DNA of 64,000 bases from a virus, in IMG/VR virus record IMGVR_UViG_3300024581_003238, positions 79,988 to 143,987 of that record; one strand, 5' to 3'. The number at the start of each line of letters is the position of its first letter. Within the stretch, counting starts at the first letter, position 1. Positions 31,112-49,866 of this stretch are shown here, one piece after another. The position numbers and the translations under genes are program-made. The notes under the pieces were generated by a model that had not been told where the DNA came from, did no database searches, and saw only the letters and a list, made by a program, of their open reading frames with translations.

Positions 31112-31112
31112 T

Positions 31113-31445
31113 ATGTACGAAAATAGAAGATGGTTGGTAATTCCAACGGATATAGTAGAAACTATAGACTTCAATGAAGTTATGGAGAGGGACATAAACA
31201 CCCTTAGATATTCAATTGATGGGTCAAAAACATTTGTTAAATATAATGTAAATGTTGTTGATGAAGAATACGTGGAAGAATATTATGACGCAGAAGATCC
31301 GTCAATAGTATATACCAACACTTTTGCGGTTGGAGTTTATGGACGACCGTCATTCTATTCCGAGGAATACCAAGAATATAACCACGAGGAAATCTTAGAA
31401 TTATTAAGGTCTCCTGAGTGGAGTCCAAGTAATGATATTCAATAA
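31113..31445 (+). CDS. Hypothetical acidic protein, possibly a fibre accessory
   Basis: 110-aa ORF coupled within the LamG array. Confidence 0.6.
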   Translation: MYENRRWLVIPTDIVETIDFNEVMERDINTLRYSIDGSKTFVKYNVNVVDEEYVEEYYDAEDPSIVYTNTFAVGVYGRPSFYSEEYQEYNHEEILELLRSPEWSPSNDIQ

Positions 31446-31447
31446 AG

Positions 31448-32680: not shown

Positions 32681-34059
32681 TGAATATAGGACCAAAAATA
32701 CATACAGACGACTTAGTATTGTCAGTGGATGCACAAAGTACAAGATCGACATTAAGGAATTTACAAACAAGTAACATTCTTCCAGATCCAGGGTTTTGGC
32801 AAACAGGTACGGGAGGGTCTACAGGGTATGCCGCTAATGGAAGTTCCACCGAACAATTAAGGGCGGTAATTTCTGATGATCCTTGGGGTAGACAATCGGT
32901 TATTTGGAGAACAACACCCGACGCAACTTCAGGTCCTGATGGTGGTTGGAATAGTACTTATTATCCTGTTGATGTACAATACACTTACAGGTATTCTGTT
33001 TGGGTTAGACGACATACTTCAGGAACGGGAGGTACCTTTTACATGGGGATGAATCCAAACCCAATAAGAAATGATAACGGATCCTCTCAAAGTAATCCAT
33101 ATTTTACATACCCATCAATTTCAAGTTTAACACATAATCAATGGTATTTGGTGATTGCTCACGTATTTTATGCGGGTTATAGTGGTGGTAGACATCCTAA
33201 ATCGGGGTGGTATGAAAATGGGACTAAAATAAGTGATAAAAGTTATGGTAATTGTGGTGATCAAGACACCAGATGGAATGAATCAACCGTAACGGCACGA
33301 CACAGAGCTTATCATTATTATACAACAAACACGTCATCGGGGATTGAATTTGCATATCCAAGAATCGACAAAATTGACGGTAATGAACCAACAATTGAAC
33401 AATTATTATTTAGGGGGGAGTCAAGTTTTAAAAGTTTAGGATCAGACAAACAATATATGACACCTAATAACTCGGGAGAGTTTTCAACTATGGTGGATGC
33501 TTATAGACAATTAAACTATTTTGATATGGACGGTACTGATGATTATATTTCGGTGGATCCAATTACATATTCACCGTCAGAAAGTTGGACTGTGGAGGTG
33601 GTATTTAACCCTTGGGATGTTAATGATGGTAGTTGGTCTGGTATATTCGGAGGAGACTTAGGTAATGGTGGATATTGGATGTTTCATAGTAATCAATTGA
33701 CATACTATGAAGGTTACAATGGTAGTTCCCAAATAAAATACACTGGTTGGACTAAGGCGGAGGTTTTCCCTCAAGGTAGATTCTATCATCTAACCATTGT
33801 TTATGAATCTACAGGATCTAATCAAGGAACATTTACATTATATAAGAATGGTAATGAAAAAACAACATCGTTTGGTTGGACGTTCACTCATGGAGAAAGT
33901 CTAGGTTTACATTCTTTGGGGAGAGGGTCAACGAATAGACCAGGTAGTAATCATATTTTATCATTTAGGTTGTGGAATAAAAATTTAAGTTCAGATCAAG
34001 TTCAAGAGAACTATGATGCACAAAAAAATAAAATTGACATGGGTACTTACCCAGTTTAA
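32680..34059 (+). CDS. LamG-like protein with an inserted carbohydrate-binding-module-like domain
   Basis: GPKIHTDDLVLSVDA; insert with YTYRYSVWVRR and QWYLVIAHV; core FDMDGTDDYI; ends QVQENYDAQK. Confidence 0.72.
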   Translation: MNIGPKIHTDDLVLSVDAQSTRSTLRNLQTSNILPDPGFWQTGTGGSTGYAANGSSTEQLRAVISDDPWGRQSVIWRTTPDATSGPDGGWNSTYYPVDVQYTYRYSVWVRRHTSGTGGTFYMGMNPNPIRNDNGSSQSNPYFTYPSISSLTHNQWYLVIAHVFYAGYSGGRHPKSGWYENGTKISDKSYGNCGDQDTRWNESTVTARHRAYHYYTTNTSSGIEFAYPRIDKIDGNEPTIEQLLFRGESSFKSLGSDKQYMTPNNSGEFSTMVDAYRQLNYFDMDGTDDYISVDPITYSPSESWTVEVVFNPWDVNDGSWSGIFGGDLGNGGYWMFHSNQLTYYEGYNGSSQIKYTGWTKAEVFPQGRFYHLTIVYESTGSNQGTFTLYKNGNEKTTSFGWTFTHGESLGLHSLGRGSTNRPGSNHILSFRLWNKNLSSDQVQENYDAQKNKIDMGTYPV

Positions 34060-34072
34060 AAATTAAAATAAA

Positions 34073-34300
34073 ATGGGAGTAATACCGGCAACAGGATCAG
34101 AAGTAAGTATGGGTAGAATATCTAGAGCGTTGGGTACTACTTCGGCATATCCACCACCCGCCAACAACAGTATTGCTCTTAATGGTACTTTAGGTATTAA
34201 TAGAAGTAATGCAGTCACTAATATTAGTGATATTGTGTCAGGTTCTCGAACAGAAGAATCAGGTGATTTCGGGGGATTGGATACACCAAATAATTATTAA
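34073..34300 (+). CDS. Small Gly/Ser-rich probable virion protein
   Basis: 75 aa, MGVIPATGSEVSMGRI...DFGG, resembling short proteins found beside phage fibre genes. Confidence 0.5.
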   Translation: MGVIPATGSEVSMGRISRALGTTSAYPPPANNSIALNGTLGINRSNAVTNISDIVSGSRTEESGDFGGLDTPNNY

Positions 34301-34348
34301 CCTTTAAAAACTAAGTTATTTTTTTTATATTAAAACATATATATAAAA

Positions 34349-34795
34349 ATGAAACTTAGATTCAAAAATAAACTTTCAAGGTACGAGACACTTTACATCA
34401 AATGGGAAGGTGTACAATACGATCGTAAAATTCTAAAAAAATTTGTTATTCGTTTTAGGTGGGTAAAATTCCTATCAAAATTTATTACAAAATATAAAAG
34501 AGAGTTAGATTTTATGGTACAAATAATAGATCATTATGGTAGGTCAAAAATATTTAACTTACTTAATAACGATGAAGAAACTTCAAGACTATCCCACATA
34601 GAAAGGTTATCAAGAAATGGATCTATCGAAATACTCACCTCGGGAGTATACAAATCGGATACATATAAACAAATCAGTAATCTCCCAAAAAGAGATTTTG
34701 ATTTAGTTACAAAAAGAGTACAAGAACTCATAAAAATCGGTCAATCAGTATACGTACAAAATGACGGATTAGGGGAAAATTTACCGGGAGATTGA
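34349..34795 (+). CDS. Hypothetical protein
   Basis: 148-aa basic ORF coupled to the following glycosyltransferase. Confidence 0.6.
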   Translation: MKLRFKNKLSRYETLYIKWEGVQYDRKILKKFVIRFRWVKFLSKFITKYKRELDFMVQIIDHYGRSKIFNLLNNDEETSRLSHIERLSRNGSIEILTSGVYKSDTYKQISNLPKRDFDLVTKRVQELIKIGQSVYVQNDGLGENLPGD

Positions 34796-35439
34796 AATCA
34801 AAAAATAACTCATCGATATGGGTAAACCAACCCAAAAAAATTTCCATAGTGGTACCTACAAGGGATATGGTACACAGTGGTTTTGCGTTTTCACTAACAC
34901 AATTAATAAAGTACTCTGAAAGTGCGGGAATTGAGACCTTCCTATTCTTTAATTCGGGTTCTGTTTTATTAAATCAAAGAGAAAAATTGATAAAATCATC
35001 AATGGAGGTCGAATCTGACTATACATTATGGTTAGACAGTGACATGACATTCCCATCAACCACATTATTAAGACTATTATCACATGATAAAGAGATAGTG
35101 GGGTGTAATTACAAAAAAAGATCTAACCCACAGACACCTGTCGCATATAAAGAAATTGGTGATTGGGATAGTTGGGTTTCTTTAGACGAAGAAAAGGATC
35201 TTGTTGAAGTTGAGGGTGTTGGTATGGGTTGTATATTAATAAAGACAGACTTATTCAAAGAAATTAACAAACCTTACTTTGAATTCACATATAATAAGGA
35301 AACCGATGATTGGTTAGGTGAAGATTTTAACTTATTCACTAAGTTTAGAAATATTGGTAAAAATATATACATAGATACCAATTTGAGTAGGGAAATAGGT
35401 CACTTAGGAATTTACAAATTTGGTTCATCAAACCAATAG
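34792..35439 (+). CDS. GT-A fold (GT2-like) glycosyltransferase
   Basis: ISIVVPTRD, DxD in WLDSDM, GMGCILIK, GEDFNLF and a C-terminal GH. Confidence 0.8.
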   Translation: MKSKNNSSIWVNQPKKISIVVPTRDMVHSGFAFSLTQLIKYSESAGIETFLFFNSGSVLLNQREKLIKSSMEVESDYTLWLDSDMTFPSTTLLRLLSHDKEIVGCNYKKRSNPQTPVAYKEIGDWDSWVSLDEEKDLVEVEGVGMGCILIKTDLFKEINKPYFEFTYNKETDDWLGEDFNLFTKFRNIGKNIYIDTNLSREIGHLGIYKFGSSNQ

Positions 35440-35456
35440 ATTAGATATTTATAATT

Positions 35457-36131
35457 ATGGGAATATTCAGAGGTGCACACACAAATAGTGTTCAAGCAAA
35501 TTTAATTTTAGACGCTGCATCACAAAGATCATATCCGGGTAGTGGTAATATTTGGTACGATTTGAGTGGTAATGGTCACAATGCGGATATTTTCGGTTCC
35601 CCAACTCATGGGGAATTAGGTGGGGCTAAATGTTTCATATTAGATGCGGTAGGAAAACGATTTAATGCAAATACCGATAATAATACAACTACAAATGACC
35701 TAACATTGGAAGCGTGGATATATCCTCAAGACGAAGTAAGTACAGGAGATAGGGGTGCGGTAATTCAGGGATATTGTTATCTAAGTTGGAATAAGTCAAA
35801 TAGAAGATTAAGTAATTATTGGTACTCCGCGAGTCCAAGGGGTTACCATGAACCAACAACTCAAATGGATCGAAATAGGTGGCATCATTTAATGTCGGTA
35901 TGGGATTCTTCAACAGGAGAACTTTATCAGTATATAAATGGTGTTTTAGAAAATACTGTAACAACATCCACAACTACGGGGTCATACTATTCTGATCTTA
36001 ATATTGGTTGGGAGGGTGATAGTAGACAATTTTCGGGAGGGATATCAGTGATTAAGGTTTATAATAACGTTGTAAGTGGAGATCAAGTTCTACAAAATTA
36101 TAACGCACAAAAATCGAGATTTGGATTATGA
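35457..36131 (+). CDS. LamG/ConA-like protein, no insert
   Basis: NLILDAASQRSYPGSGNIWYDLSGNGHNA, TLEAWIYP, YINGV and QVLQNYNAQKSRFGL. Confidence 0.8.
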   Translation: MGIFRGAHTNSVQANLILDAASQRSYPGSGNIWYDLSGNGHNADIFGSPTHGELGGAKCFILDAVGKRFNANTDNNTTTNDLTLEAWIYPQDEVSTGDRGAVIQGYCYLSWNKSNRRLSNYWYSASPRGYHEPTTQMDRNRWHHLMSVWDSSTGELYQYINGVLENTVTTSTTTGSYYSDLNIGWEGDSRQFSGGISVIKVYNNVVSGDQVLQNYNAQKSRFGL

Positions 36132-36244
36132 AAATAATAGAAGAAGGTATAAATAAAGATGGTGTACAGTGTTGGTTTGTCTTGGAAGATGCAAACTTAG
36201 TTGGTGTATACGAAACATTAGAAGAGGCAGAACAGAATTTATAA
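36128..36244 (+). CDS. 38-aa acidic microprotein (not in ORF track)
   Basis: MKIIEEGINKDGVQCWFVLEDANLVGVYETLEEAEQNL*. ATGA overlap upstream and TAATG overlap downstream. Confidence 0.55.
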   Translation: MKIIEEGINKDGVQCWFVLEDANLVGVYETLEEAEQNL

Positions 36245-36951
36245 TGGCAATACACTTAGGACCAAACATACCTAAAGAAGGTTTAATTTTTTCAGTAGAT
36301 CCTGCGAGTACAAAATCGTGGGATGGTCTTAATTATAGGAATACCGCACATTTAGATGATAGTACGACCATTACAGGAACAATTACACACGTAACCGATG
36401 GTGGAGGGACATTTACCTTTGGTGCAAATGGTAGTTATTTTAATTACGGAACAACAAGTCCCCTACGAAATCTATACGATGTCTCATTAGTTGGTTGGGT
36501 TAAACAGGGAAGTACTGGATCTCCACACCAAACCGTGATAGGAACTTCAAGTAGTTATTTATACGGTCTTAAATTAATGAGTAGATATCACGGAGCGGCT
36601 GCGGCTTGGATGGGTGATGGTGGTGGAGCATCTCATTTATTAAGTTCGAATGTAGATATAACAGGTGATGGTGAATATCATTTATTGGCTTGTACACGAA
36701 ATGGTGGTACGGGTGACATCAAAATTTATGTTGACGGTGTTTTAAAAAATACTGTTGGATTTACGAATACAAACGGAAATTTTAGAGGAGGGGTTAATGA
36801 TAGTGGTAACACATTACTTGGTGCTGATTACCACTCCGTAGGTTATTATCATACGGGTAATATAGGTCAGGTTTATGGGTACAATATTACATTGTCTGAT
36901 GATGAAATTTTACAAATATATAATAACGGTAAAGAAAGGTACGGATTATGA
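36244..36951 (+). CDS. LamG/ConA-like protein, no insert
   Basis: Start corrected to ATG 36244 (MAIHLGPNIPKEGLIFSVD). IYVDGV and EILQIYNNGKERYGL. Confidence 0.8.
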   Translation: MAIHLGPNIPKEGLIFSVDPASTKSWDGLNYRNTAHLDDSTTITGTITHVTDGGGTFTFGANGSYFNYGTTSPLRNLYDVSLVGWVKQGSTGSPHQTVIGTSSSYLYGLKLMSRYHGAAAAWMGDGGGASHLLSSNVDITGDGEYHLLACTRNGGTGDIKIYVDGVLKNTVGFTNTNGNFRGGVNDSGNTLLGADYHSVGYYHTGNIGQVYGYNITLSDDEILQIYNNGKERYGL

Positions 36952-38450
36952 AAATAGGTGGTGGTCTAAATAATGAAAATTTGGTTTTTGGTTATGATTC
37001 CCAAGGTTTCTCCTTTGGTGGTGAACCAACAACTAATTTAGTACCCTCACCTCAACATAATAGTAATTTCACCATTCAAAATGGTTGGAGTACCTACAAC
37101 ACCAATCAATATAATAGTAACACTTATTTTTCAATAGGTACTATTGGTTCTGTGACAAATAATATTGTTACACTTAGTAGTGTGGATAGGACCATACGTA
37201 GTTTTGATGTTCTGAAACCACAAACAAGTGGTGGTGGGGTAACCGCAGGTACTAATTACGTTATTAAAAAAATAAACGATACTGATTCATTCAGTTTACA
37301 TGAATATAATTCATCTCAAAATGGTTCTCAAGGATATATAAATCCCGACACGGGATTCTTTAAAGTTCATGATGCATATGCAAATGACACGAGAATATCA
37401 ATAAATGCGACTAACTTCCCAACGATGTGGTGGGGAGGACCACACCTTCCAAATTCGGGATTAATTAAGGAGATAGTACCAAACGAAGGAAGAAGACATG
37501 GTACAAATGCAATGAGATTACATGCGTATAGACCCGATGGTGTAGTTGATGGTATGGCTTATGGTGTTAACACACCTGTAACTCAAGGTGATGTGGTCAC
37601 TGTAAGTGTATGGTTAAAATTAGCGGACGGAAGAGGTGAAGGTAAATCTTTGGGGTATTCGACGTATTTTGGTTCAGGGTTTTCAGGTAGTTCAACTTCA
37701 TTTGGGCCACTTACAACACAATGGAAGAAATATGAATATAGTTGGACGGCATCAAATACCTATTCCTTTATATCATATTGGTGGCCAAACTCACCAACTC
37801 AACCATACGCAATTGATATGTGTGACTTCCAAGTGGAGGTTAATAAAGATGAGGCAACTAAATTTGTTATAGGGACAAGATCAAATACTGAATCACTAAT
37901 TGACCTTAAGGGTAACCAAACATTAGACACAACAAATATTTCTTGGACATCTGAGGGTTATCCTGAATTTAATGGTAGTTCTAATTATATTGATATAGAA
38001 AGTGTTACCTTAGGTAATGGTAGTTGGACTATAGAAGTTATTGTGAACGCACATGGTTCCAGTTATTCAATATTATCTAATAATTCGGGAGGTCCTGTTA
38101 CAAATGCATTTGGGGTATATGGTAATAAGATGCACTATAGGAATTATGATGGATCTTGGAAAAATCACGACAGTAATACCACCGTAAACTATAATGAATA
38201 CTATCACTTAGTATGGGTAAATAGAGGGTACAACTCCTCAATGGACCTTTACATAAACGGTGTCAAAGACAGTACCTCAGGATTTAATAGTTATACAACA
38301 AATGGTGGTCCTGTAAATAGTGTAGGTAAAAGTTGGAATGCTTACTTTGATGGTGTTATTCCCGTATTTAGAAGATATGATGATGAATTAACAGATGATG
38401 AGGTATATCAAAATTATATGTCATTTAAAACACCATTTGGTTTAAGTTAG
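36948..38450 (+). CDS. LamG-like protein with a ~290-aa insert including a CBM-like domain
   Basis: NLVFGYDS; insert with VTVSVWLK and LTTQWKKYEYSW; core EFNGSSNYI and YINGV; ends EVYQNYMSFKTPFGL. Confidence 0.72.
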   Translation: MKIGGGLNNENLVFGYDSQGFSFGGEPTTNLVPSPQHNSNFTIQNGWSTYNTNQYNSNTYFSIGTIGSVTNNIVTLSSVDRTIRSFDVLKPQTSGGGVTAGTNYVIKKINDTDSFSLHEYNSSQNGSQGYINPDTGFFKVHDAYANDTRISINATNFPTMWWGGPHLPNSGLIKEIVPNEGRRHGTNAMRLHAYRPDGVVDGMAYGVNTPVTQGDVVTVSVWLKLADGRGEGKSLGYSTYFGSGFSGSSTSFGPLTTQWKKYEYSWTASNTYSFISYWWPNSPTQPYAIDMCDFQVEVNKDEATKFVIGTRSNTESLIDLKGNQTLDTTNISWTSEGYPEFNGSSNYIDIESVTLGNGSWTIEVIVNAHGSSYSILSNNSGGPVTNAFGVYGNKMHYRNYDGSWKNHDSNTTVNYNEYYHLVWVNRGYNSSMDLYINGVKDSTSGFNSYTTNGGPVNSVGKSWNAYFDGVIPVFRRYDDELTDDEVYQNYMSFKTPFGLS

Positions 38451-38488: not shown

Positions 38489-39223
38489 ATGGAGAACATA
38501 GGTTTCGGAATTATGTGCTTCGGTGATGATAAATACTTCAAAGGAGCTACGAATATATTAACTAATCTTATTGATCAGGGTCATCGTTGTTATGTATTAA
38601 CAGATAACGAAGAATATTTCTTCAAAAGATATTGGGGTAGGGTGGAAATTATACCTTATAAAAGAATTTATAAATCTTTTTATGATAAAATATCTTTAGT
38701 AAAGACCATTCATCAAAAACACGATATCTGTATATTATTAGATGCGGATCTCTATATTAAAGATTACGACCTATTTAACAAACTTATAAATTTTGATTTT
38801 AAAAAGGGGGTTTCTTACATAGACACCCTTTGGAACCATTCGGCAAAATTCAAAACAGTCGGGGATATACCAATGGAAGGAGATGAGTGGTCAGAATTTA
38901 AAAAATACTCCCAATCAATCTATAAAGACTTTAATAATTTAGAAACGTTATGGGAATATTTCATTGTTTTCAATAAAGATGGTTTCGATACTCATAGATT
39001 TTTTAAAACTTATGAAAAATTACAAATAGTTAAGGAATTCTGTGATCTAAAATATAATAAAAAGGTATCGGGTGCAGGTGAAGGTGTTGCCGTAACATTA
39101 TCATGTAAAATTAATGACATACCAATATCTAAAGACCTTAGATTAGAAACTTTAACTATTAATACACTTAAACCGATCACTAGACATACACCACCTAAAG
39201 AAGTACCTAACCATTTAAAATGA
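38489..39223 (+). CDS. Putative GT-A fold glycosyltransferase-like protein
   Basis: YVLTD, DKISLV and DxD in ILLDADL, a pattern seen in GT6/GT8-like enzymes. Confidence 0.5.
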   Translation: MENIGFGIMCFGDDKYFKGATNILTNLIDQGHRCYVLTDNEEYFFKRYWGRVEIIPYKRIYKSFYDKISLVKTIHQKHDICILLDADLYIKDYDLFNKLINFDFKKGVSYIDTLWNHSAKFKTVGDIPMEGDEWSEFKKYSQSIYKDFNNLETLWEYFIVFNKDGFDTHRFFKTYEKLQIVKEFCDLKYNKKVSGAGEGVAVTLSCKINDIPISKDLRLETLTINTLKPITRHTPPKEVPNHLK

Positions 39224-39945
39224 TAACCAATCAAGAATACATTGAGAATTTTATAACATCAGACAATGGTGAAAAATTACCATTTCTATGGACTCATGGT
39301 GCAACTAAACAACATTTGGGTGATGGGATTATAGTATATTCATTGATACAACACATGAGATATAAAAGTTGTGTATGTATTGGGACTGGTGGTGGATATA
39401 TACCAAGAATAATGACCCAAGCAAGAATAGATTTACACAAACAAGGTATTTTTAGTGGGGACCCAACCTATAGTTGGGGAGATATCGGGACTACTTATGT
39501 TGTTGACCCTTGTAATGGGGTTGGTGGGGATAGTAACATATCTGATATGGAAGGTTTTTACCAAAAAACTTTTTTCCCGAGATTCATAAAAGAAACATCT
39601 GAAAAGGCATACTATGATTTCTTTGTTAGAGAAGATATTATGATTGACCTACTTTTCATAGATGGTGACCATTCATACGAAGGTGTGAAGAAAGATTTCG
39701 ATCTGTACTCAAAAAGACTCAATCCAAATGGTTTGATAATGGTACATGATACTGACTCTTCATATTCCGAAACTTTAATTACTAGTGAAGATGCTAAGAA
39801 AGATTTCTTCCCCTTCAATGGTCCGTCTAAATTAATTAACGAAATAAAAAATGATTCTGATTGGGTCGTTATGGATTTATTTAATTTAGGTAATATTAAA
39901 GATAAACCCTCTTCGACGGGTATAACAATAATTAAGAGAAGATGA
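39220..39945 (+). CDS. Class I SAM-dependent methyltransferase (Methyltransf_24-like)
   Basis: CIGTGGG, VVDP and DLLFIDGDHSYEGVKKDFDLYSKRLNPNGLIMVHD. Confidence 0.85.
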   Translation: MITNQEYIENFITSDNGEKLPFLWTHGATKQHLGDGIIVYSLIQHMRYKSCVCIGTGGGYIPRIMTQARIDLHKQGIFSGDPTYSWGDIGTTYVVDPCNGVGGDSNISDMEGFYQKTFFPRFIKETSEKAYYDFFVREDIMIDLLFIDGDHSYEGVKKDFDLYSKRLNPNGLIMVHDTDSSYSETLITSEDAKKDFFPFNGPSKLINEIKNDSDWVVMDLFNLGNIKDKPSSTGITIIKRR

Positions 39946-40796
39946 TAAGATTATTATGTGTTTTGGGTCACGGACATGAGTTACTACCCCATTTTATTGA
40001 ACATTATAGTAAACATGTGGATGAAATACAATTCGTGATTTATGAATCTGCGGCGTCCCCAAGAATATTAAGTAGATCAAAACCAATAATACGAAAATAT
40101 GATAACTGTAAGATAGTAAAGGTGGTGAGAGATCGTGTTTTTGATTGGGAAAAAGTTACCATTCTATATAATATGATTAAATCAAAGAAAAAGAATGACT
40201 GGTGGGTTATTGCGGACATTGACGAATTCCACGTATATCCTTACAGTAACTTACGTGATATGGTTAAAGAATGTGATGAAAATTTATGGTCCGTGGTTAG
40301 AGGTGGTTTTATAGATAGAGTCGGACCTAAGGGTGTATTTCCTAAATTAGAAGATTCAACACCCATATTTGAACAATTCCCATATGCGGGGTTTTTTAGG
40401 TATCCTATGAGTAATGCCTGTCCTAATAAAATATGTCTGGTGAAAGGTAATATTGAAATAACCAATGGTCAACATTACGCAAATATTGATGGTCACACCA
40501 CTTGGAGATGGCAAGGATGGTCACATCCGATGATTGCCCCATATAAAGATTATTCCATACAAGTACATCATTTTAAATGGGACGAAACCTGTAAGAGTCG
40601 TATTAAAAAAGTGGTAGATGTTAATGAACCGTACGCGTATTCTAAAGAATATCTAAAATTATATGATGAGTTAAGAAAAACAGATTTTGTTGTTGACTTA
40701 AAAAATAAAGATTACATGTTCCTTAAAAGTGCGAAACCAATCTACAGTTCATATAAACATTGGGATAAATTAATAAGAAAAATAATAAGTATATAA
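39942..40796 (+). CDS. GT2-like glycosyltransferase (Glyco_tranf_2_4/GT92-like)
   Basis: LLPHFIEHY, WWVIADIDEF, NKICLVK and VHHFKW. Confidence 0.7.
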   Translation: MIRLLCVLGHGHELLPHFIEHYSKHVDEIQFVIYESAASPRILSRSKPIIRKYDNCKIVKVVRDRVFDWEKVTILYNMIKSKKKNDWWVIADIDEFHVYPYSNLRDMVKECDENLWSVVRGGFIDRVGPKGVFPKLEDSTPIFEQFPYAGFFRYPMSNACPNKICLVKGNIEITNGQHYANIDGHTTWRWQGWSHPMIAPYKDYSIQVHHFKWDETCKSRIKKVVDVNEPYAYSKEYLKLYDELRKTDFVVDLKNKDYMFLKSAKPIYSSYKHWDKLIRKIISI

Positions 40797-40798
40797 TC

Positions 40799-41020
40799 AT
40801 GGCAAAAAAACAAATAAAAACAAATACGTCTTTTGAAGAAGAAAAATTAATCTTAGAAGAAAGAAAAGTTAAATCGTTAGAAAAAATTGCAAATACTTTG
40901 GATGCACTAACAATATGGTTTGAAGAAATAGACAAATCAGGTTGGGATGAAAGAATCCAATATTATATGCACGAATGGCATAAACACACTATCCAAGATA
41001 ATGACGAAGAAGAAAAATAA
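40799..41020 (+). CDS. Hypothetical small protein
   Basis: 73-aa ORF overlapping the next start. Confidence 0.55.
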   Translation: MAKKQIKTNTSFEEEKLILEERKVKSLEKIANTLDALTIWFEEIDKSGWDERIQYYMHEWHKHTIQDNDEEEK

Positions 41021-42419
41021 ATTAGCGGTTATTGTACCCTATCGAAATAGGTACAAACAACTATTAAAGTTTAAAAAAGAGATTAGTAAATATCTAGATA
41101 AAAAAGATATTGAACATGTCTTAATAGTTGTAGAACAGGATGATGCTAAATTATTTAATAGAGGTAAGTTATTAAATATAGGATATGAACACGCAGTAAA
41201 GTTAAATTGTAACTATGTTGTTTTTCATGATATAGATATGATACCACTGAAAGTTGATTATTCATATTCAGACATACCAGTACACTTAGCTACTGATTTT
41301 CTAATTGACGATACCACCTTTAAAAGAGAAATGTTTGATCAATATTTTGGGGGAGTCACACTATTCCCAATAGAATCATTTCAATTAATCAACGGATATT
41401 CTAATGAGTATTGGGGTTGGGGTTTTGAAGACGATGATCTTTTTAAAAGATGTATCGACAAGGGGATTCCGTACGATTTAAAATATCTAAACACACAAGG
41501 GGGTCCTAATTCCGCGATTAAGTTCAATGGTGTGGATGCATATTCCGAAGGGTATATAGATATCGATACAAGTGAAGATGATTTAACTATTATGATTACA
41601 ATCGATCCTGATGGAATTATATGTGATACTGAACAATCATATGATAAGTACACCGCTCTTTCTATCCCTAAATTAGATTTAACCATTAGTTATGATTCTT
41701 TTAGAAGATATAAGGTTTTAATGAAAGACCGTAGTGATTGGTGTTATGTTGACAGTAAAATTGAAACTAATAGAAAAACAACTTTAGTTGTGGTACTCAA
41801 TATAAAAAGGAAGACTCTAACTATGTATCAGGATTCTAAAAAAGTTGGATCTATGAGTTTTTCAAAGAACATACCTAAATGTAGTAAAGTAGAGTTATAT
41901 GTTGGATCAACTAATAAAGAAAAAGATTTATTTAAAGGTATCATATCACAGGTTGCAATCTATAATAAAATATTAAAGTTGAAAGAAATAGAAGAAATAT
42001 CAACCAACGAAAAGTACTCACTAACAATGGATTTTGGTGAGTATGAGTCCTCACATAGTTTAAGACACTACTTTGATATGAAGTATATAAGTGAGTACAG
42101 AGTTATGGATTTGGTTGATAGAGAAAATTTCTTAAGATTAGAAAAATGTGAATTAGTACATTATCGATATGATAATGAACATAAAATAAAGGTACCATTT
42201 AGGAGAAGATGTTATTTTGAGATGTTACCCCATGAGACCACTGGATATAAAAATGGTGTGTGGTCAGATATTAACATACGTTACAACCAACTCAGGTTTC
42301 ATAATGAAATGGAAAAGGGATACAGAGATCCTAATAAAGACGGTCTTTCTAATCTTGAATATAAGATATGGGATTCAACCACTAAAAATAATCAAACACA
42401 TATAACTGTTAAAATATGA
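41001..42419 (+). CDS. GT7 (beta-1,4-galactosyltransferase-like) enzyme with an internal LamG-like insert
   Basis: KLAVIVPYRNR, FNRGKLLNIG, FHDID, YFGGV, NGYSNEYWGWGFEDDDL; ~240-aa insert; then FEMLPH...DGLSNLEY...HITVKI. Start corrected to ATG 41001. Confidence 0.85.
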   Translation: MTKKKNKLAVIVPYRNRYKQLLKFKKEISKYLDKKDIEHVLIVVEQDDAKLFNRGKLLNIGYEHAVKLNCNYVVFHDIDMIPLKVDYSYSDIPVHLATDFLIDDTTFKREMFDQYFGGVTLFPIESFQLINGYSNEYWGWGFEDDDLFKRCIDKGIPYDLKYLNTQGGPNSAIKFNGVDAYSEGYIDIDTSEDDLTIMITIDPDGIICDTEQSYDKYTALSIPKLDLTISYDSFRRYKVLMKDRSDWCYVDSKIETNRKTTLVVVLNIKRKTLTMYQDSKKVGSMSFSKNIPKCSKVELYVGSTNKEKDLFKGIISQVAIYNKILKLKEIEEISTNEKYSLTMDFGEYESSHSLRHYFDMKYISEYRVMDLVDRENFLRLEKCELVHYRYDNEHKIKVPFRRRCYFEMLPHETTGYKNGVWSDINIRYNQLRFHNEMEKGYRDPNKDGLSNLEYKIWDSTTKNNQTHITVKI

Positions 42420-43801
42420 GTCATAAATTAGGAATATGTATACCATATAGAAATAGGGAGGCACACTTAAACGAGTTATTACCTAAACTAGAAAAACATT
42501 TAAACAAACAAGGTATAGAATATGGGGTCTATGTTGGACACCAAGTAGACGATAAACTATTCAACAGAGGTGCAATGAAGAATATTGCCGCAGTTAAAGC
42601 AATGGAAGATGGTTGTGATTATGTTGCATTTCATGATGTAGATATGTTACCTCATGATGAGACATGTGACTATTCATATCCCTATGATACTCCGATACAT
42701 ATTGCGACAAAATTATCAAAATACTCATGGTCTATGGGTTATGAACAATATTTTGGAGGTGTCGTACTTTTCAATAAAGAACATTTAGTACAAACAAATG
42801 GGTATTCTAACAACTATTGGGATTGGGGGCAAGAGGATGATGATTTATTTTGGAGGTGTTTCTATGAAGGACATTCTGATAGAAAAATATATGAAACTAT
42901 TGAAGATAAAGAAGTACATCTATTTAATGGTAAAACATCATCATTAACTTTTAAATCACATAGAGGTTTAAGTACACCTTTGTTTAGGGATCATACCATC
43001 TCTATATTAGTTTCACCTGAACAACAACCTGAAGTTGTACCAATATGGTTAGTGGGTGATAAAGAAAGAAAATTTATAGAATATCCCATACTAAGAAAAG
43101 ATGGAAGTTGGACTTGGGGGATATCGTTTAACAATTCAAGAGCATTATCGATACTGAATTTCGATAAGACAAACAATCCGTTATATCACTGGTCAAAGGC
43201 GGTAGAGAATAAATGGACATGGTTCACCGTTTCATATAAACATGATGAACAAAAGTTGTACATATTTTCAAATAATAAATTAGTTTCTAATAATGGAGAT
43301 GTTCTTAAATCTAAACCTATTGATTTACCGGATAAAATAAAGTCTCACCCACTAATGGGTGATTTTCATATTGGTAGATGTAATCACCAAAATACCAATT
43401 TTAAGGGTAAGGTTGCAGAATTAAAAATATACGATAGATTCTTCGACACATTTGATGAGTGTAAATTAAATAATGAAAATATTATATACGATATGAACAA
43501 TGATCAAGGTAGTATAAAAAATGATGTAGAATTACAGAAAGAGACTATCGAAATTGACGAAAGTATTTTACCATATAGACGAGAAGGTAAATTTTATTGT
43601 TTACCACATTTAGATGAAGGTTTAGTGAATGGAAGGTGGGCTAAAGGTGAAACCACCGCAAGAAATGAGAAAAGATTTGTTACTGAAATGCAACAAGGTA
43701 AATTAGATTATAAAACTGATGGTATTAATAGTTTAAAATATGAACTAGTTGAAACCATCCAACATACAGAAAAATGTAAAATTTTTAATGTTAGGTTATG
43801 A
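42416..43801 (+). CDS. Second GT7 enzyme with an internal LamG-like insert
   Basis: KLGICIPYRNR, FNRGAMKNIA, FHDVD, YFGGV, NGYSNNYWDWGQEDDDL; ~230-aa insert; then YCLPH...DGINSLKY. Confidence 0.85.
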   Translation: MSHKLGICIPYRNREAHLNELLPKLEKHLNKQGIEYGVYVGHQVDDKLFNRGAMKNIAAVKAMEDGCDYVAFHDVDMLPHDETCDYSYPYDTPIHIATKLSKYSWSMGYEQYFGGVVLFNKEHLVQTNGYSNNYWDWGQEDDDLFWRCFYEGHSDRKIYETIEDKEVHLFNGKTSSLTFKSHRGLSTPLFRDHTISILVSPEQQPEVVPIWLVGDKERKFIEYPILRKDGSWTWGISFNNSRALSILNFDKTNNPLYHWSKAVENKWTWFTVSYKHDEQKLYIFSNNKLVSNNGDVLKSKPIDLPDKIKSHPLMGDFHIGRCNHQNTNFKGKVAELKIYDRFFDTFDECKLNNENIIYDMNNDQGSIKNDVELQKETIEIDESILPYRREGKFYCLPHLDEGLVNGRWAKGETTARNEKRFVTEMQQGKLDYKTDGINSLKYELVETIQHTEKCKIFNVRL

Positions 43802-45174
43802 GTGAGTTACTATCCAACATAAAGAAACAACTAGACCAAAAGGGTAGGGGTTTTTGTGCTGCAAAGTGGACACAAGTAACTATACATTTAGGTACGGGAT
43901 TAACACATTCATGTCACCACCCCAACCCACATAAAATTGGTTTAGCCGAATTAAGAAATAACCCATCTGCACTACACAACACACAACACAAAAAGAGGGC
44001 TCGTAAACAAATGTTGGAAGGTGAAAGACCTAGTGAGTGTGATTATTGTTGGAAGATCGAGGACAACTCAAACTCATTCTCAGACAGGGTATTTAAATCT
44101 TCAGAATCATGGTCAGCACCATACATAGAAGAAATTAAAGAATACGGATGGAGAGGTAACTATAATCCAAAATATGTTGAGGTTTCTTTCTCAAACGTAT
44201 GTAATTTTAAATGTGCCTATTGTGGACCACAATTCTCATCTAAATGGGTAAACGAGATAAATAAGAATGGTGCTTATAAATTATCGTATGATTATAATGA
44301 TACGGAACATCTAAAAAAGAAAAATGAAATGCCAATTCATCATAATGATTTTAATCCATATGTTGAGGCGTTTTGGAAATGGTTTCCTGATTTGTATCCT
44401 GACCTACACACATTTAGAGTGACGGGAGGTGAACCACTACTATCATCAGACACTTTTAAGTTATTGGAATATATACAAAATAACCACGAAGTAAATCCTA
44501 ACCTATCGTTAGCCATAAACACAAATTTAGGTGTGAGTGATGATATCATTGATAGGTTTGTTAACATCATAGAAGATTTAACAGAAAACAATAAGGTAAA
44601 GGAGTTTATTGTCTTTACATCAATCGAAGCGACCAAGTCACAGGCAGAATATTTGAGATATGGGTTAGACACTAGTAAATTTTGGACTAATGTTGAAAAA
44701 ATACTTAGTAAGTTACCAAAAGTGACTATTAATATAATGTCAACGTACAATGCGTTGTCTGTATTCACATACGATGATTTAATTGATAGAGTATTTGATC
44801 TGAAAAGAAAATACCAAAATAATGAAAGGTATTGGGTATCCGCAATACAGTTAGACACTTCATACATACGACACCCTAAACACCTGTCAGTTAAAATTTT
44901 AGAGGATGACCATAAAGAATTGATTTTACAATCAGCCAAAAAAATGTTATATTATGGTATGAAGGAATTCACTCATGATAACTATGGGTTTTCTACCGTA
45001 GAAATACAAAAATTAAAACGAACATATGATTACGCAATTAGTGCGGACGACTTTGACGTTGAAACCAACAGGAAGGACTTCGTTAAATTCGTTGATCAGT
45101 ACGATAAAAGACGAAAATTAAATTTTTTGGATACATTTCCACAACTAAAAGAGTTCTATGTTAAAAATCAATAA
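43798..45174 (+). CDS. Radical SAM enzyme with an N-terminal twitch/SPASM domain
   Basis: FCAAKW...SCHH...ECDYCW, then CNFKCAYC (CxxxCxxC) and TGGEP. Confidence 0.88.
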   Translation: MSELLSNIKKQLDQKGRGFCAAKWTQVTIHLGTGLTHSCHHPNPHKIGLAELRNNPSALHNTQHKKRARKQMLEGERPSECDYCWKIEDNSNSFSDRVFKSSESWSAPYIEEIKEYGWRGNYNPKYVEVSFSNVCNFKCAYCGPQFSSKWVNEINKNGAYKLSYDYNDTEHLKKKNEMPIHHNDFNPYVEAFWKWFPDLYPDLHTFRVTGGEPLLSSDTFKLLEYIQNNHEVNPNLSLAINTNLGVSDDIIDRFVNIIEDLTENNKVKEFIVFTSIEATKSQAEYLRYGLDTSKFWTNVEKILSKLPKVTINIMSTYNALSVFTYDDLIDRVFDLKRKYQNNERYWVSAIQLDTSYIRHPKHLSVKILEDDHKELILQSAKKMLYYGMKEFTHDNYGFSTVEIQKLKRTYDYAISADDFDVETNRKDFVKFVDQYDKRRKLNFLDTFPQLKEFYVKNQ

Positions 45175-45742
45175 AGGGGAACCTTGGATATTTTGGCCCA
45201 ATAGTATTTGTGAAACATTTCCTGAAGATGCGGGAAACAAAATACTATCCAATAAATTAAATTACACCTTAGAAGTTGATATCGTATTAACAGATGAGAG
45301 TGATTTGGAGAAAACTCTATTTGCGTTAGTACCAAGGTATATGGGTTTAAATATTAATCCTACCAATATCTCATTTACAATCACTTTTCAAGATGATGTG
45401 GAATATTATACCTTAGAACATATAGTGGTTCCTAATCAATTAACTAATATTAAATTAAATCACATTTATAAAGATAGGTTTGAATTGTTTTTAAATGGTG
45501 AAGTAATATTAAATGTTGATTTGAGTGAAAGGGAATTAGGGTTAGACAACTCACCTCATATAATTTTTGGTGCGGGTAACTTCCCTAAGAATAAAACGAA
45601 TACAAATTATACTGAATTTGAGTTTCATAAGTTTAAACTAATTTCAGATGGGGAATTAATCTCTGAACATACATTTGACGAATTTATACATAACAAATCA
45701 GTAGATGTTTCAGGTAATTGTAATTTCCTACATAAAATTTAA
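45158..45742 (+). CDS. Stand-alone ConA/LamG-like beta-sandwich protein
   Basis: FELFLNGEV, HIIFGAG and C-terminal VDVSGNCN, similar in character to the GT7 inserts. Confidence 0.45.
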   Translation: MLKINKGEPWIFWPNSICETFPEDAGNKILSNKLNYTLEVDIVLTDESDLEKTLFALVPRYMGLNINPTNISFTITFQDDVEYYTLEHIVVPNQLTNIKLNHIYKDRFELFLNGEVILNVDLSERELGLDNSPHIIFGAGNFPKNKTNTNYTEFEFHKFKLISDGELISEHTFDEFIHNKSVDVSGNCNFLHKI

Positions 45743-45759
45743 AATTATAATATAAAATA

Positions 45760-47331
45760 ATGAGTATAGATGCAAGAAAACCCGGTGAAACATTTCTCGA
45801 ATATCGAGATCGGGTAATTAACAAAATTTCACCTTCATTTTGTGGTGCTAAATGGTATAATGCGACGATATGGTTAGGTAATGGAGCAACGACAAGTTGT
45901 CATCACCCACCGTCACATAAGATACCACTAACAGATCTTGAAAAATCGTATAAGGCAATCCATAATACCACATATAAGAAGGCGGTACGTAAACAAATGT
46001 TAGAGGGTGTACGTCCAAAAGAATGTGATTACTGTTGGAGAATAGAGGATTTGGGGAAAGATATGATTTCTGATAGAACACATAAGTCAGTCATTTATAC
46101 TGATAAAGAATTGATTGACGCTAAGGAGAAGTTAGGTGCAAGTGAAGATGTGGACTTAAGGACTTTAGAAATTTCGTTCGACCCTGTATGTAACTTTGCT
46201 TGTTCCTATTGTAACTCATCGTTTTCTACAACATGGCAAAAAGATATTAATAAAAATGGTCCATACCAAAATTTGGTAAGTGATGGTGCGGGTGCATTTC
46301 AACACAACGGAGACCACGCAATGCCTTACGGGAAATTAAATTTAAAAAACCCTTATGTCGATGCATTTTGGAAATGGTGGGAGGGTGAATTACAACACTC
46401 ATTACGAGAGTTAAGAGTCACAGGTGGTGAACCATCAATGTCTCGTAATTTTTGGAAATTAATGAAATGGTGGGAAACAAATAAAAACTCGGATATCGAC
46501 TTTGCGATAAATTCCAATTTAGGTATAAGTGATAAAATAATGGATTCACTTATTGAGTATAGTCATAATATTAAATCATTTCACATATACACTAGTTGTG
46601 AATCATACGGGACACATGCGGAATACATTAGAGATGGTTTAAATTGGAGAAAGTGGTTAAAAAACGTAGATAGAATATTATCTGAAGGAAATATTAAGTC
46701 ACTTAATATGATGTTAACAATAAACTCATTATGTCTTTTTAGTTTACCCGAATTCATGGATGAAATGATGAGAATTAAAAGAAGACATAAATCCTCATCA
46801 CCTGTATGTTCTTTTAACATTCTAAGATTCCCGTCATTCCAATCAATTGTGACATTACCGATGCAAATGAGGTTAGAAAGAGCGGACGCACTTGAAAAAT
46901 GGATTGAGGACAACTACACAGATGGTTCTAATTATTTTATGGATTGGGAGCGTGATGGTATGGTTCGATTAATCAATTATTTAAGAAATACTGAGGAAGG
47001 TCACGACCATACATCATCTATAGAGACTAGAGAACGGGATTTTAAATCATTTTACAAACAATATGATAAACGTAGAGGTAAAAATTTCTTAGAAACGTTC
47101 CCTATGTTAAAAAAGTGGTGGGATTTAATTCCCGACACAAATATTAAAGAGTTATCATCGACATTAAATGGTGATGACACTAAACACAATAAATACGTAA
47201 ATGAAGTACTCACTATAGCAAAAAAAGAGGGTTGGGTGTTAGAACCTCAATGGGCTAACCCTGGTGCTCAGGATTATGTCGAATCTGATGAGGAGTTAGA
47301 CATGATCGAGTACATAAAAAAGTTAAAATGA
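45760..47331 (+). CDS. Radical SAM enzyme with an N-terminal twitch domain
   Basis: FCGAKW...SCHH...ECDYCW, CNFACSYC and TGGEP. Confidence 0.88.
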   Translation: MSIDARKPGETFLEYRDRVINKISPSFCGAKWYNATIWLGNGATTSCHHPPSHKIPLTDLEKSYKAIHNTTYKKAVRKQMLEGVRPKECDYCWRIEDLGKDMISDRTHKSVIYTDKELIDAKEKLGASEDVDLRTLEISFDPVCNFACSYCNSSFSTTWQKDINKNGPYQNLVSDGAGAFQHNGDHAMPYGKLNLKNPYVDAFWKWWEGELQHSLRELRVTGGEPSMSRNFWKLMKWWETNKNSDIDFAINSNLGISDKIMDSLIEYSHNIKSFHIYTSCESYGTHAEYIRDGLNWRKWLKNVDRILSEGNIKSLNMMLTINSLCLFSLPEFMDEMMRIKRRHKSSSPVCSFNILRFPSFQSIVTLPMQMRLERADALEKWIEDNYTDGSNYFMDWERDGMVRLINYLRNTEEGHDHTSSIETRERDFKSFYKQYDKRRGKNFLETFPMLKKWWDLIPDTNIKELSSTLNGDDTKHNKYVNEVLTIAKKEGWVLEPQWANPGAQDYVESDEELDMIEYIKKLK

Positions 47332-48668
47332 AGAAAAAAAGAATAAAACCTTCGGAAGGTAATAAAACATTTTGTGTTGTACCGTGGACACACACTTATA
47401 TCTCACCTCAGAGTGAAAGGAGAATGTGTTGTGCGAGTAGAGAGAAGGCGTCTTGGGCTACACAATATATCGATGGTGATGTGGCAGATGTAAATTCCGA
47501 TTATTCACCAATTACATTGGAAGAACATTGGAATAGTGATTATATGAACGACATCAGAAAACGATTAATGGCGGGTGAAGAAATATCTCAATGTGATGTG
47601 TGTAATAATAAATTATTGAATATCCATGTTTACCGTGATTACTTCACCAAGACATTATTTCCTCACAAAATTGATGAGATTTTTGAAAATACCGATGATG
47701 AAGGAAAAACAACACTAAAACCAATATCCTATGATTACAGGATAAACAACCTATGTAACTTTAAATGTAGAATGTGTGGGGATCAACTATCCTCGCAATG
47801 GGAAAAAGAAAATAGAGAATTAGGTTACTATGATAACGGTGTAGACGCATGGGCAAGTGATTTATATAAACCACTTATAGGTGAATTTCAAAAAACGGTC
47901 GTTGAAAAAGAGTTATGGGATGCTGTTTACGAAAAGAGAATTGAAGAGATATATTGGGTTGGTGGGGAACCACTAATGTGGGATATACATTGGGACATAA
48001 TGTCATATTTGGTTGAAAACGACCAAGCTAAAGATGTGGTTGTTAGATATAACACCAATCTAAGTATGGTTGAAAGGAGAAAAGTAAAGTTATATGATTT
48101 ATTACAACACTTTAAGAGGGTTCAAATATGTGCGAGTATAGATGGTGTAGGAAAAATAGGTGAATACATTAGGACAGGATTAAGATGGAATAGTTGGATA
48201 AATAATTTTAAAAAAGGTTTATTCTTGAATGAGAAATACGGTGATTACGGGATCTCTTTTGACCTTACCGTCACTTCACCAGGTTTATTCTCAATAAAAG
48301 ACATGATAGATGTGACAATGGAGTTGGATGTCCATACATTAATTAAGACTACATTTTCATTCGATAGTACAATTATAATGTCTCCAATGATGATACCGAG
48401 ACACATCTTAGACCCTATTTTAGATGATATAATAGATTATGCCACCGAGAAAGCGAAGGTAAATTCAAAAATACAAAATTACGTAGATTGTTTTTTAGAT
48501 ATAAAAAGTAAAAAGACATTTGAAGAGGAGTATGATGATTGGGAAGAGGGAATCCGTAATGGGAAAAAACAAATGGAAAGAACAGATATGTATAGAAATA
48601 ACCCCGATACTTTGAATGAAATTTTTTCAGAAAATGAGGAATTGATAAAGTGGTGGAAATCAATTTAA
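47328..48668 (+). CDS. Radical SAM enzyme with an N-terminal twitch domain
   Basis: FCVVPW...RMCC...QCDVC, CNFKCRMC and VGGEP. Confidence 0.88.
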   Translation: MKKKRIKPSEGNKTFCVVPWTHTYISPQSERRMCCASREKASWATQYIDGDVADVNSDYSPITLEEHWNSDYMNDIRKRLMAGEEISQCDVCNNKLLNIHVYRDYFTKTLFPHKIDEIFENTDDEGKTTLKPISYDYRINNLCNFKCRMCGDQLSSQWEKENRELGYYDNGVDAWASDLYKPLIGEFQKTVVEKELWDAVYEKRIEEIYWVGGEPLMWDIHWDIMSYLVENDQAKDVVVRYNTNLSMVERRKVKLYDLLQHFKRVQICASIDGVGKIGEYIRTGLRWNSWINNFKKGLFLNEKYGDYGISFDLTVTSPGLFSIKDMIDVTMELDVHTLIKTTFSFDSTIIMSPMMIPRHILDPILDDIIDYATEKAKVNSKIQNYVDCFLDIKSKKTFEEEYDDWEEGIRNGKKQMERTDMYRNNPDTLNEIFSENEELIKWWKSI

Positions 48669-48672
48669 AACT

Positions 48673-49866
48673 ATGGAAGAAAAAAAAGGTTTTTGTGTCT
48701 TACCATTCATACACTTAGCAACACACCCAATAGGAACAGTAACACCTTGTTGTATCACTGAGATGAAAGATGATGTGAGTAGTGCTATAGATGGTGACAG
48801 AAAGTTATTTTTAGAAACCGATCCTCTAACAGATATTGCTAATTCGGAAAGATTCTCATCCATGAGATCTCAAATGTTAAAAGGGGAATACCCAAAAGTA
48901 TGTAGGATTTGTCAACACCATGATGAAAATGGTATTTACAGTAAACGTAGGGAAAGTAACGAAAAATTCAAACATTTGATTGACGATGCGGTACTGAACA
49001 CTAAAGAGAATGGTGACCTCATTAATGTTAATTACAAATACATTGAGTTAAGGTTGGGTACTGTGTGTAATTTAAAATGTATAACATGTAACCCGTTTAG
49101 TAGTAATAGGTGGAATGAAGATGTTAAAATATTTAAAGGGACCGAGTTCGAGAAACAATATTTCAAAAACAACGATAAAACAGAATGGTATCGAAGTACC
49201 GAGTTTTATGATGATTTGATAAAACACACACCTGAACTCGAAGAAGTTTGGATTAATGGTGGGGAACCGACATTAATAAAAGAACATTCTTATTTTCTCC
49301 AAAAGTTAATTGATAATGGTGTTGCTAAAAACGTAAACTTACATTACAGTATAAATTTAACAAGGATACCTGATACGTTTATCGAAATATGGAAACAATT
49401 TAAAAAAGTTAGGTTGTCATTATCGATCGACGATTTGGGTGATCGTAACGATTATATTAGGACTGGTTCTATGTGGTCAGTGATATATAAAAATTTTAAA
49501 AAGATATTGAATTATAGAGACACGTTTTCAATTGAGGTTTGTCAAACAGTGAGTATGTTGAATGTGTATGAATTAAACGAATTTAAGAAATTTACGCAGG
49601 AACATAGAGTAGTACTGTCTCATAACTATGTTAACTACCCTTCATTTCTTCATGTATCTAACATCCCTGAAGAAATGAAACAAGAAATTCTAAAAAGGAT
49701 ACCAAATTTACATGTTGAGGAGGTTGAACGATTGACTGAAGAACTATATAAAAATAAAACATCTGAGTTTGAAAAATTCTATAAATATATTAATATGTTG
49801 GACCTAAAAAGAAATGTTAGTATTTCTGAAAGTCTGAATGAATGGGAAAAATATTTTACAAAATGA
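48673..49866 (+). CDS. Radical SAM enzyme with an N-terminal twitch domain
   Basis: FCVLPF...TPCC...VCRIC, CNLKCITC and NGGEP. Confidence 0.88.
   Translation: MEEKKGFCVLPFIHLATHPIGTVTPCCITEMKDDVSSAIDGDRKLFLETDPLTDIANSERFSSMRSQMLKGEYPKVCRICQHHDENGIYSKRRESNEKFKHLIDDAVLNTKENGDLINVNYKYIELRLGTVCNLKCITCNPFSSNRWNEDVKIFKGTEFEKQYFKNNDKTEWYRSTEFYDDLIKHTPELEEVWINGGEPTLIKEHSYFLQKLIDNGVAKNVNLHYSINLTRIPDTFIEIWKQFKKVRLSLSIDDLGDRNDYIRTGSMWSVIYKNFKKILNYRDTFSIEVCQTVSMLNVYELNEFKKFTQEHRVVLSHNYVNYPSFLHVSNIPEEMKQEILKRIPNLHVEEVERLTEELYKNKTSEFEKFYKYINMLDLKRNVSISESLNEWEKYFTK

Follow-up and report, generated by a model that had tools for sequence, protein, structure and literature searches.

A tandem pair of phage GT7 glycosyltransferases with a LamG-like domain nested in the catalytic fold

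Two adjacent GT7 genes and their domain layout

The window analysed here is a stretch of 64,000 nucleotides of viral DNA (IMG/VR record IMGVR_UViG_3300024581_003238, positions 79,988 to 143,987), and the genes in question are two adjacent glycosyltransferase genes within it, GT7a and GT7b, the coding sequence of each being split by a LamG-like insert (Table 1). Both proteins belong to CAZy family GT7 and match both Pfam halves of this family, Glyco_transf_7N (71.7 bits, expectation value (E) 6e-20 for GT7a and 76.2 bits, E 2e-21 for GT7b; cut-off 27) and Glyco_transf_7C (61.4 bits, E 7e-17 and 65.1 bits, E 4e-18, respectively; cut-off 23). The alignment to Glyco_transf_7C ends at model position 60 of 78 in both proteins because the insert interrupts the domain. 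Between the two GT7 halves, the Laminin_G_3 domain was detected at 37.3 bits in GT7a, above the cut-off of 27.6, and in GT7b at 25.3 bits, slightly below the cut-off, or at 27.7 bits together with neighbouring pieces. The motifs PYRNR, FNRG, FHD(I/V)DM, YFGGV, NGYSN.YW.WG.EDDD, FNG, FKG...IY, LPH and DG(L/I)..L.Y are found in both translations. When a profile of GT7b orthologues was searched against the PDB, beta4GalT1 and beta4GalT7 were matched at E 2e-44 over GT7b residues 3-157, and the same match resumed at residues 419-452, which carry the DG.NSL.Y tail.

A preliminary description, made from the sequence without database searches, had proposed tandem GT7 genes each split by a LamG-like insert, with the inserts at about 41472-42190 and 42871-43560. 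The motifs, the Pfam matches and hidden Markov models (HMMs) of the two core halves all agree with this layout, and the core HMMs place the insert boundaries within a few codons of those positions. The same description called the enzymes animal-type, which holds as a family label and not beyond it, as insert-less GT7 proteins exist in bacteria and giant viruses and the animal stem and anchor are missing here. Both proteins start only 3-7 residues ahead of the PYRNR strand, and no hydrophobic segment, stem or membrane anchor was detected in either GT7a or GT7b (highest 19-residue hydropathy 0.75 and 0.87). For GT7a, the 472-residue form starting at 41001 has the same length as a 97%-identical homologue. 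The two proteins are 30% identical to each other from end to end, insert included (E 6e-49).

Table 1. Features of the GT7a-GT7b locus. Positions are those of the window; conservation was counted among 60 insert-bearing and 44 insert-less relatives, with residues in GT7b numbering.
Feature	Coordinates	Strand	Description
GT7a, first GT7-LamG glycosyltransferase	41001..42419	+	472 residues; in-frame upstream ATG at 40947 would give 490 residues
LamG-like insert of GT7a	41472..42194	+	241 residues between N-core and C-core (core HMMs)
GT7b, second GT7-LamG glycosyltransferase	42416..43801	+	461 residues; 4-nucleotide overlap with GT7a
LamG-like insert of GT7b	42881..43570	+	230 residues between N-core and C-core (core HMMs)
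GT7b C-terminal His (H398) and extended lid loop with G..NG.W	43607..43663	+	From orthologue conservation and predicted local distance difference test score (pLDDT)
DxD (D74, D76)			Kept in 60 of 60 insert-bearing relatives
W137			Kept in 58 of 60 insert-bearing relatives
E140			Kept in 58 of 60 insert-bearing relatives
D141			Kept in 60 of 60 insert-bearing relatives
C-terminal His (H398 in GT7b)			Kept in 54 of 60 insert-bearing and 41 of 44 insert-less relatives; invariant among GT7b orthologues
Tyr at the equivalent of Tyr289 of bovine beta4GalT1			Kept in 50 of 60 insert-bearing relatives
Methyltransf_24 methyltransferase	39220..39945	+	Pfam
GT2_4-like GT-A glycosyltransferase	39942..40796	+	Pfam
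Small open reading frame (ORF)	40799..41020		73 residues; between the GT2-like gene and GT7a, overlapping the GT7a start by 20 nucleotides
Radical SAM enzyme	43798..45174	+	PF04055; 4-nucleotide overlap with GT7b; same place in related contigs L007-L010 and L012
Free-standing LamG-like protein	45158..45742	+	194 residues; collinear with the insert; two genes downstream of GT7b

Predicted fold, active site and known enzymes

AlphaFold2 models built on orthologue alignments reached a pLDDT of 90.7 and a predicted template-modelling score (pTM) of 0.86 for GT7a, and 85 and 0.84, respectively, for GT7b. In these models the GT-A fold superposes on solved GT7 enzymes across both halves, and the insert is predicted to form a beta-sandwich superposable on solved LamG, pentraxin or LNS domains. 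The closest folds of the insert include pentraxins and the LamG-like domain of PAPP-A, and one of the top matches was 4dqa, a putative carbohydrate-binding protein of Bacteroides ovatus. The models and superpositions, together with Laminin_G_3 for the insert, agree with the earlier proposal that the two halves assemble into one GT7 fold of the GT-A type, and that the insert is a beta-rich, LamG-like domain. The insert is located after the helix with the xED base and before the strand leading to the metal-binding C-terminal His. Placed in the scheme of PMC7185993, this site seems to adjoin the C-terminal hypervariable region and not to lie inside it.

The equivalents of bovine beta4GalT1 D252/D254 (DxD) and E317/D318 (xED) are found in both genes, within FHD(I/V)DM and WG.EDDD, respectively. 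The C-terminal His, a predicted metal ligand, corresponds to bovine H347 by sequence alignment with insert-less and animal-like members and by the superposition spanning the two halves. At the equivalent of Met344, three residues before this His, GT7a carries Met (M-L-P-H) and GT7b carries Cys (C-L-P-H). Judged from these alignments and the conservation in Table 1, the donor, metal and catalytic residues are intact in both enzymes. In bovine beta4GalT1, Tyr289 confines the donor to galactose (Gal) rather than N-acetylgalactosamine (GalNAc). Both phage enzymes are predicted to use a UDP-hexose, most likely UDP-Gal, since Tyr stands at the position of Tyr289 and the Asp and Glu residues that bind Gal are retained.

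After the His comes the loop that forms the flexible lid in beta4GalT1; in the phage enzymes it has about 10 residues more than in beta4GalT1. The G..NG.W motif within this loop is found mainly in insert-bearing members and is missing from most insert-less relatives. Residues 401-410 of GT7b, with a pLDDT of about 50, form the least confident part of the model, which fits a flexible lid. Within the insert, another loop of GT7b, residues 202-221 (43019-43078), is near-invariant among orthologues (Q203, Q204, P209-D215 and F220) and is modelled at a low pLDDT of 56-72; we consider it a candidate binding loop.

The closest known systems include the animal enzymes beta4GalT1 and beta4GalT7 (CAZy GT7; PDB 1TVY, 1NF5, 2AE7, 4IRQ and 3LW6), to which the phage N-core is 31-40% identical. 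The order of motifs is shared, including DxD, YFGG with the Tyr289 equivalent, W.WG.EDDD, the C-terminal His and DG.N.L.Y. In the animal enzymes the xED helix and the His strand are joined by a linker of about 10 residues, whereas a LamG-like domain of 230-241 residues stands at this place in the phage proteins, which are also free of stem and membrane anchor, are encoded by tandemly duplicated genes and have an activity that is predicted. The insert-less GT7 proteins of bacteria (such as Parachlamydiaceae, Steroidobacter and Vibrio) and giant viruses (such as Mimivirus LCMiAC01 and Aureococcus anophagefferens virus) have the same compact soluble core and the same catalytic residues, with an N-core 37-50% identical, but their core halves are joined by 0-11 residues. 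The insert itself resembles LamG/pentraxin/ConA-like proteins (PAPP-A, PTX3, SAP/CRP, neurexin LNS and BACOVA_03559) and the LamG_3 virion proteins of phages, and differs from them in being nested in an enzyme.

Two systems offer analogies for what such a domain might do. In the ppGalNAc-transferases of family GT27, a ricin-type lectin domain guides the choice of acceptor, and in lactose synthase, alpha-lactalbumin bound beside the acceptor site and the lid loop re-aims beta4GalT1. The acceptor-guiding lectin of GT27, the sister family of GT7 in the GT-A tree (PMC7185993), may serve as a working model for the phage insert, although the GT27 lectin is a C-terminal appendage of beta-trefoil fold on retaining enzymes, whereas the phage LamG-like domain is nested inside the catalytic fold and GT7 enzymes are inverting. 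Lactose synthase (PDB 1NF5 and 4L41) is a possible analogy for a nested domain, with the difference that alpha-lactalbumin is a separate protein of lysozyme fold and the phage domain is covalently nested.

Distribution and history of the nested domain

At E of 0.001 or below, GT7b as query retrieved 1815 clusters at 90% identity and GT7a retrieved 3424. Members of the best 120 clusters for each query are nearly all 450-490 residues long, and those with a name are mostly called 'hypothetical protein'. The precomputed Pfam trio is present in all 120 best matches of GT7a and in about half of the best 120 of GT7b, the remainder of the latter missing only the weak Laminin_G_3 call. Among the best 150 representatives of 50%-identity clusters, 58 carry a segment of 212-303 residues at the same site and 44 have the core halves joined by 0-11 residues; the gap between N-core and C-core is bimodal, and no protein with an intermediate gap scores well. 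Except for one protein set aside as an oddity, P0166, all inserts match one LamG HMM, and Laminin_G_3 was detected in 54 of 65 proteins scanned (the 2 of the window and 63 representatives). P0166 (450 residues) gives two N-core matches (about 2-151 and 226-375), one C-core match and no LamG match, which points to a GT7 core partly duplicated in tandem and not to a LamG insertion; the protein was excluded from the tree described below.

In ESM Atlas, the clusters that combine these Pfam domains hold thousands of metagenomic proteins and carry the label 100% viral. The best cluster representative in the AlphaFold DB, A0A2E0BNI5 (474 residues), aligns over the full length with a template-modelling score of 0.80. 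In species-representative prokaryote genomes, full-length copies were detected only on contigs of metagenome-assembled genomes (MAGs), including a 248-kilobase (kb) contig binned with Flavobacteriaceae, while insert-less GT7 homologues occur in genuine bacterial genomes. PHROGs gave marginal matches only, and the best 50 matches in BFVD were viral proteins with LamG only or GT7 only, none of them full-length. In a search of the literature on GT7, LamG and phages, whose coverage is incomplete, no description of the architecture was found. The idea that the architecture is rare must be given up in view of the dozens of 50%-identity clusters, the thousands of metagenomic proteins and the AlphaFold DB representative. 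Of the opposite possibility, that it is already common and characterised, the first half is correct and the second is not: GT7 with a nested LamG-like domain is common in uncultured aquatic phages, is present in public databases and is uncharacterised. In ESM Atlas there is also a Bacillota family of about 605 residues that combines Glycos_transf_2 with Laminin_G_3, a pairing of GT-A and LamG domains outside phages.

The window is part of a 145.7-kb virus record with an estimated completeness of about 44%. Beyond the window, the same record holds genes for a tail sheath and a baseplate wedge protein, as well as for a family-B DNA polymerase, a DnaB-like helicase and a UvsX-like recombinase. 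Since sheath and baseplate genes are present and the contigs with close relatives measure 200-304 kb, the source is an uncultured aquatic jumbo myovirus. No isolate has a tail sheath protein more than 30% identical to its own (best: Microcystis phage Mel-JY01). Genome size and a hint of Bacteroidota make membership in the 'moraphage' lineage (PMC12619734) plausible. The Flavobacteriaceae-binned contig, L011 (CBFHJJ010000001.1), is of jumbo-phage size and encodes the module of methyltransferase, GT2-like enzyme, GT7a, GT7b, radical SAM enzyme and LamG-like protein at 62% identity to that of the window; the binning is either a hint of the host or an artefact. The size and host of this contig are compatible with the lineage of PMC12619734.

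A tree was built on the core columns only, the insert being excluded. On this tree, 57 of the 60 insert-bearing rows fall on one side, and the label for presence of the insert changes 3 times, 1 of these changes being forced by well-supported branches, against about 34 changes for shuffled labels. GT7a belongs to a clade of 27 clusters (support 100) and GT7b to a separate clade of 16 clusters (support 99); the two are old paralogues of one soluble phage GT7 family. The insertion point is the same in both genes and in every insert-bearing relative, as the preliminary description had noted for the pair. Its suggestion that insertion preceded duplication gains support from the core-only tree, in which the two supported subfamilies lie inside the insert-bearing group. 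Because these clades are separate and the two inserts share one HMM and one strand order, the comparison supports one insertion followed by duplication.

By sequence comparison, the insert appears to be circularly permuted relative to free LamG_3 proteins of the same phage, a new observation. Two of these (30431-31111 and 35457-36131) open with the strands 'GLVL..D' and 'SGNGNN', whereas the inserts open at the 'FNG..SY' strand and close with 'YYDF...DLSGN.N.G', so that the first strands of the free proteins come last. When the first 60 residues of a free protein were moved to its own C-terminal end and the product was scored against the insert HMM, the score rose from 45.3 to 57.2 bits in one case and from 12.0 to 21.3 bits in the other, with the alignment extending to HMM position 221-222. 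In the control, 30 shuffles of the appended piece, the maxima were 51.2 and 15.3 bits, respectively. A third free LamG protein showed no gain in score on permutation. Such a permutation would bring the chain ends together, as a nested domain needs.

The 194-residue protein encoded downstream of GT7b has the strand order of the insert. By hhalign, it aligned with the insert over 179 columns at a probability of 90% and E 1.6e-6, the target alignment also holding two free-standing LamG-like ORFs that may supply part of this signal. The ORF is conserved at the same position in L007-L011, and LamG-like ORFs stand there in L012 and L014; a plain sequence search did not link the 194-residue ORF to those of L012 and L014, and profile comparison alone linked them.

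Gene neighbourhood and proposed function

The conserved module reads, in order, methyltransferase, GT2_4-like GT-A enzyme, small ORF, GT7a, GT7b, radical SAM enzyme and free LamG-like protein. The methyltransferase and the GT2_4-like gene precede the GT7 pair in L007-L010 and L012, and in L013 the methyltransferase is followed by an ORF of the same size without a Pfam match. The small ORF is kept in position and size (75 residues) in L007-L010 and has no family match. In L011-L014, whose proteins are 36-62% identical to those of the window, the tandem pair with its 4-nucleotide overlap is kept, while some other contigs have a single copy, or two that lie apart. The surrounding cluster of about 20 kb (38489-58784) also encodes UDP-glucose 6-dehydrogenase, a carbamoyltransferase, SGNH-like proteins and further radical SAM enzymes, and has six LamG_3 proteins and a fibre-like ORF (more than 1700 residues) encoded on its flanks. 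Most adjacent genes of the cluster overlap by 1-26 nucleotides, an arrangement that suggests translational coupling. In a scan for promoters and terminators between 36000 and 46000, the number of promoter-like sites, 51, did not exceed the chance expectation of 58. None of the 23 ORFs of the cluster contains a membrane-like segment (highest 19-residue hydropathy 1.27), and no flippase, polymerase, priming transferase or ABC exporter was detected in it with Pfam. No gene of the epimerase/dehydratase family (a possible UDP-xylose synthase, as in the proteoglycan-linker idea of a beta4GalT7-like action on Xyl-Ser) was found in the record as far as it is complete (about 44% of the genome), a result that speaks neither for nor against that idea. 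The window holds four radical SAM genes, but in the contigs L007-L010, which are about 85% identical, just the first two are present (43798 and 45760 types) and a DUF6071 gene comes next. Because these relatives lack the two SPASM-type genes (47328-49866), the latter constitute, by this comparison, a variable cassette.

Based on this arrangement, we can propose a function for the pair. The phage would encode a cytoplasmic pathway comprising the methyltransferase, the GT2-like enzyme, GT7a, GT7b, the radical SAM enzyme, the free LamG-like protein and further tailoring enzymes, in which GT7a and GT7b would add two successive beta-linked hexoses. The LamG insert would be a built-in docking module, holding a glycan or protein acceptor beside the lid loop, a role close to the one suggested in the preliminary description. 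The most likely acceptors would be proteins of the virion surface, in particular the LamG-rich fibre or decoration proteins whose genes adjoin the cluster; candidates are encoded at 30431-38450 and, for the fibre, from 58876 onwards. A cytoplasmic pathway with soluble acceptors is favoured because membrane segments, flippase, polymerase and priming transferase are all missing. In mycobacteriophages, virion proteins are glycosylated by phage-encoded glycosyltransferases (Freeman et al. 2023, as cited in PMC12619734), which sets a precedent, although the enzyme families and the host group differ and the phage described here is known from its genes alone. Taken as a whole, that is, cytoplasmic building of a glycan, probably on virion proteins, with the LamG domain as acceptor dock, we judge this proposal about equally likely to be right or wrong. 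Several observations weigh against it. The link between the enzymes and the virion proteins is one of gene position, and parts of the pathway may be missing from the incomplete record. No match was found among cultured phages by megablast and tblastn against 50,697 phage records. In the core-only tree, three insert-bearing clusters and one insert-less cluster stand on the opposite side, and occasional loss, regain or transfer of the insert may have taken place.

The composition of the cluster, with several GT-A enzymes, UDP-glucose 6-dehydrogenase, carbamoyltransferase, methyltransferase and SGNH-like proteins, also resembles a polysaccharide locus. The products could then build or remodel a polysaccharide of the host envelope (capsule, O-antigen or S-layer glycan), blocking superinfection or altering the surface, and the LamG domain would bind the growing polymer. 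The automatic JGI annotation of one homologue reads 'predicted glycosyltransferase involved in capsule biosynthesis', and insert-less GT7 homologues reside on bacterial chromosomes. We nevertheless consider an envelope role unlikely, given the soluble nature of all 23 ORFs, the wholly viral ESM Atlas clusters of the family, and the missing flippase, polymerase, priming phosphoglycosyltransferase and ABC exporter, even if the host could supply these or the incomplete genome could hide them. Solubility would suit the making of a soluble tailored oligosaccharide, or of a glycosylated small molecule or peptide, as the substrate bound by the insert. Four radical SAM enzymes with SPASM/twitch-like Cys clusters, the carbamoyltransferase, the methyltransferase, an upstream aminotransferase and the translational coupling of a radical SAM gene to GT7b point in this direction. 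Such a product is improbable, however, as neither a precursor peptide nor a recognisable scaffold gene was identified, fibre and LamG genes of structural type surround the cluster, and close relatives keep the GT7 pair without two of the four radical SAM genes.

The role of the insert itself may be read differently, as a scaffold for oligomerisation or for docking to a phage protein such as the free LamG or the assembly machinery, which would set where the enzyme acts and not what it modifies. Pentraxins and the LamG-like domain of PAPP-A, among its closest folds, act in protein assemblies, a conserved free copy of the insert is encoded two genes downstream, and the low model confidence of the near-invariant loop 202-221 of GT7b would suit a loop that binds a partner. 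Yet LamG_3/ConA-like domains are most often carbohydrate-binding modules, 4dqa is among the top matches and no partner was identified, so we regard a pure scaffold as distinctly unlikely. Glycosylation of phage DNA, in which hypermodified bases would evade restriction, is hardly credible. We know of no GT7 enzymes among the described DNA glycosyltransferases, the cluster lies among virion genes and not replication genes, and a lectin-like domain with tailoring enzymes suits a glycan product better. The glycosyltransferases by which phages hypermodify DNA are nonetheless diverse and well known (bioRxiv 10.1101/2023.12.21.572611, as cited in PMC12619734).

Returning to the pathway that acts on virion proteins, a more specific form of it can be put forward tentatively, as a possibility we hold to be rather doubtful. 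The nested, permuted LamG domain may be a specificity subunit that touches the lengthened lid loop and presents a protein-linked acceptor, and a large lineage of aquatic jumbo phages may use sets of two or three such enzymes to build a defined glycan on fibre or decoration proteins of its own. If this is true, the domain would do in covalent form what alpha-lactalbumin does for beta4GalT1, and virion glycosylation would have a new route.

GT7 enzymes are the textbook enzymes of the animal Golgi, in which a flexible lid tunes the choice of acceptor, with a separate partner protein also taking part in lactose synthase. Here, a large unstudied family of phage enzymes has a lectin-type domain built into the catalytic fold at one fixed site, in genes that were duplicated and diversified. 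If the insert aims the enzyme, the family would represent natural engineering of specificity by domain insertion in a GT-A enzyme, and would give a handle on which glycans the uncultured aquatic jumbo phages make and where they place them. The family is soluble, compact and abundant, making in vitro tests easy, and could supply new beta-galactosyltransferase specificities for glycan synthesis.

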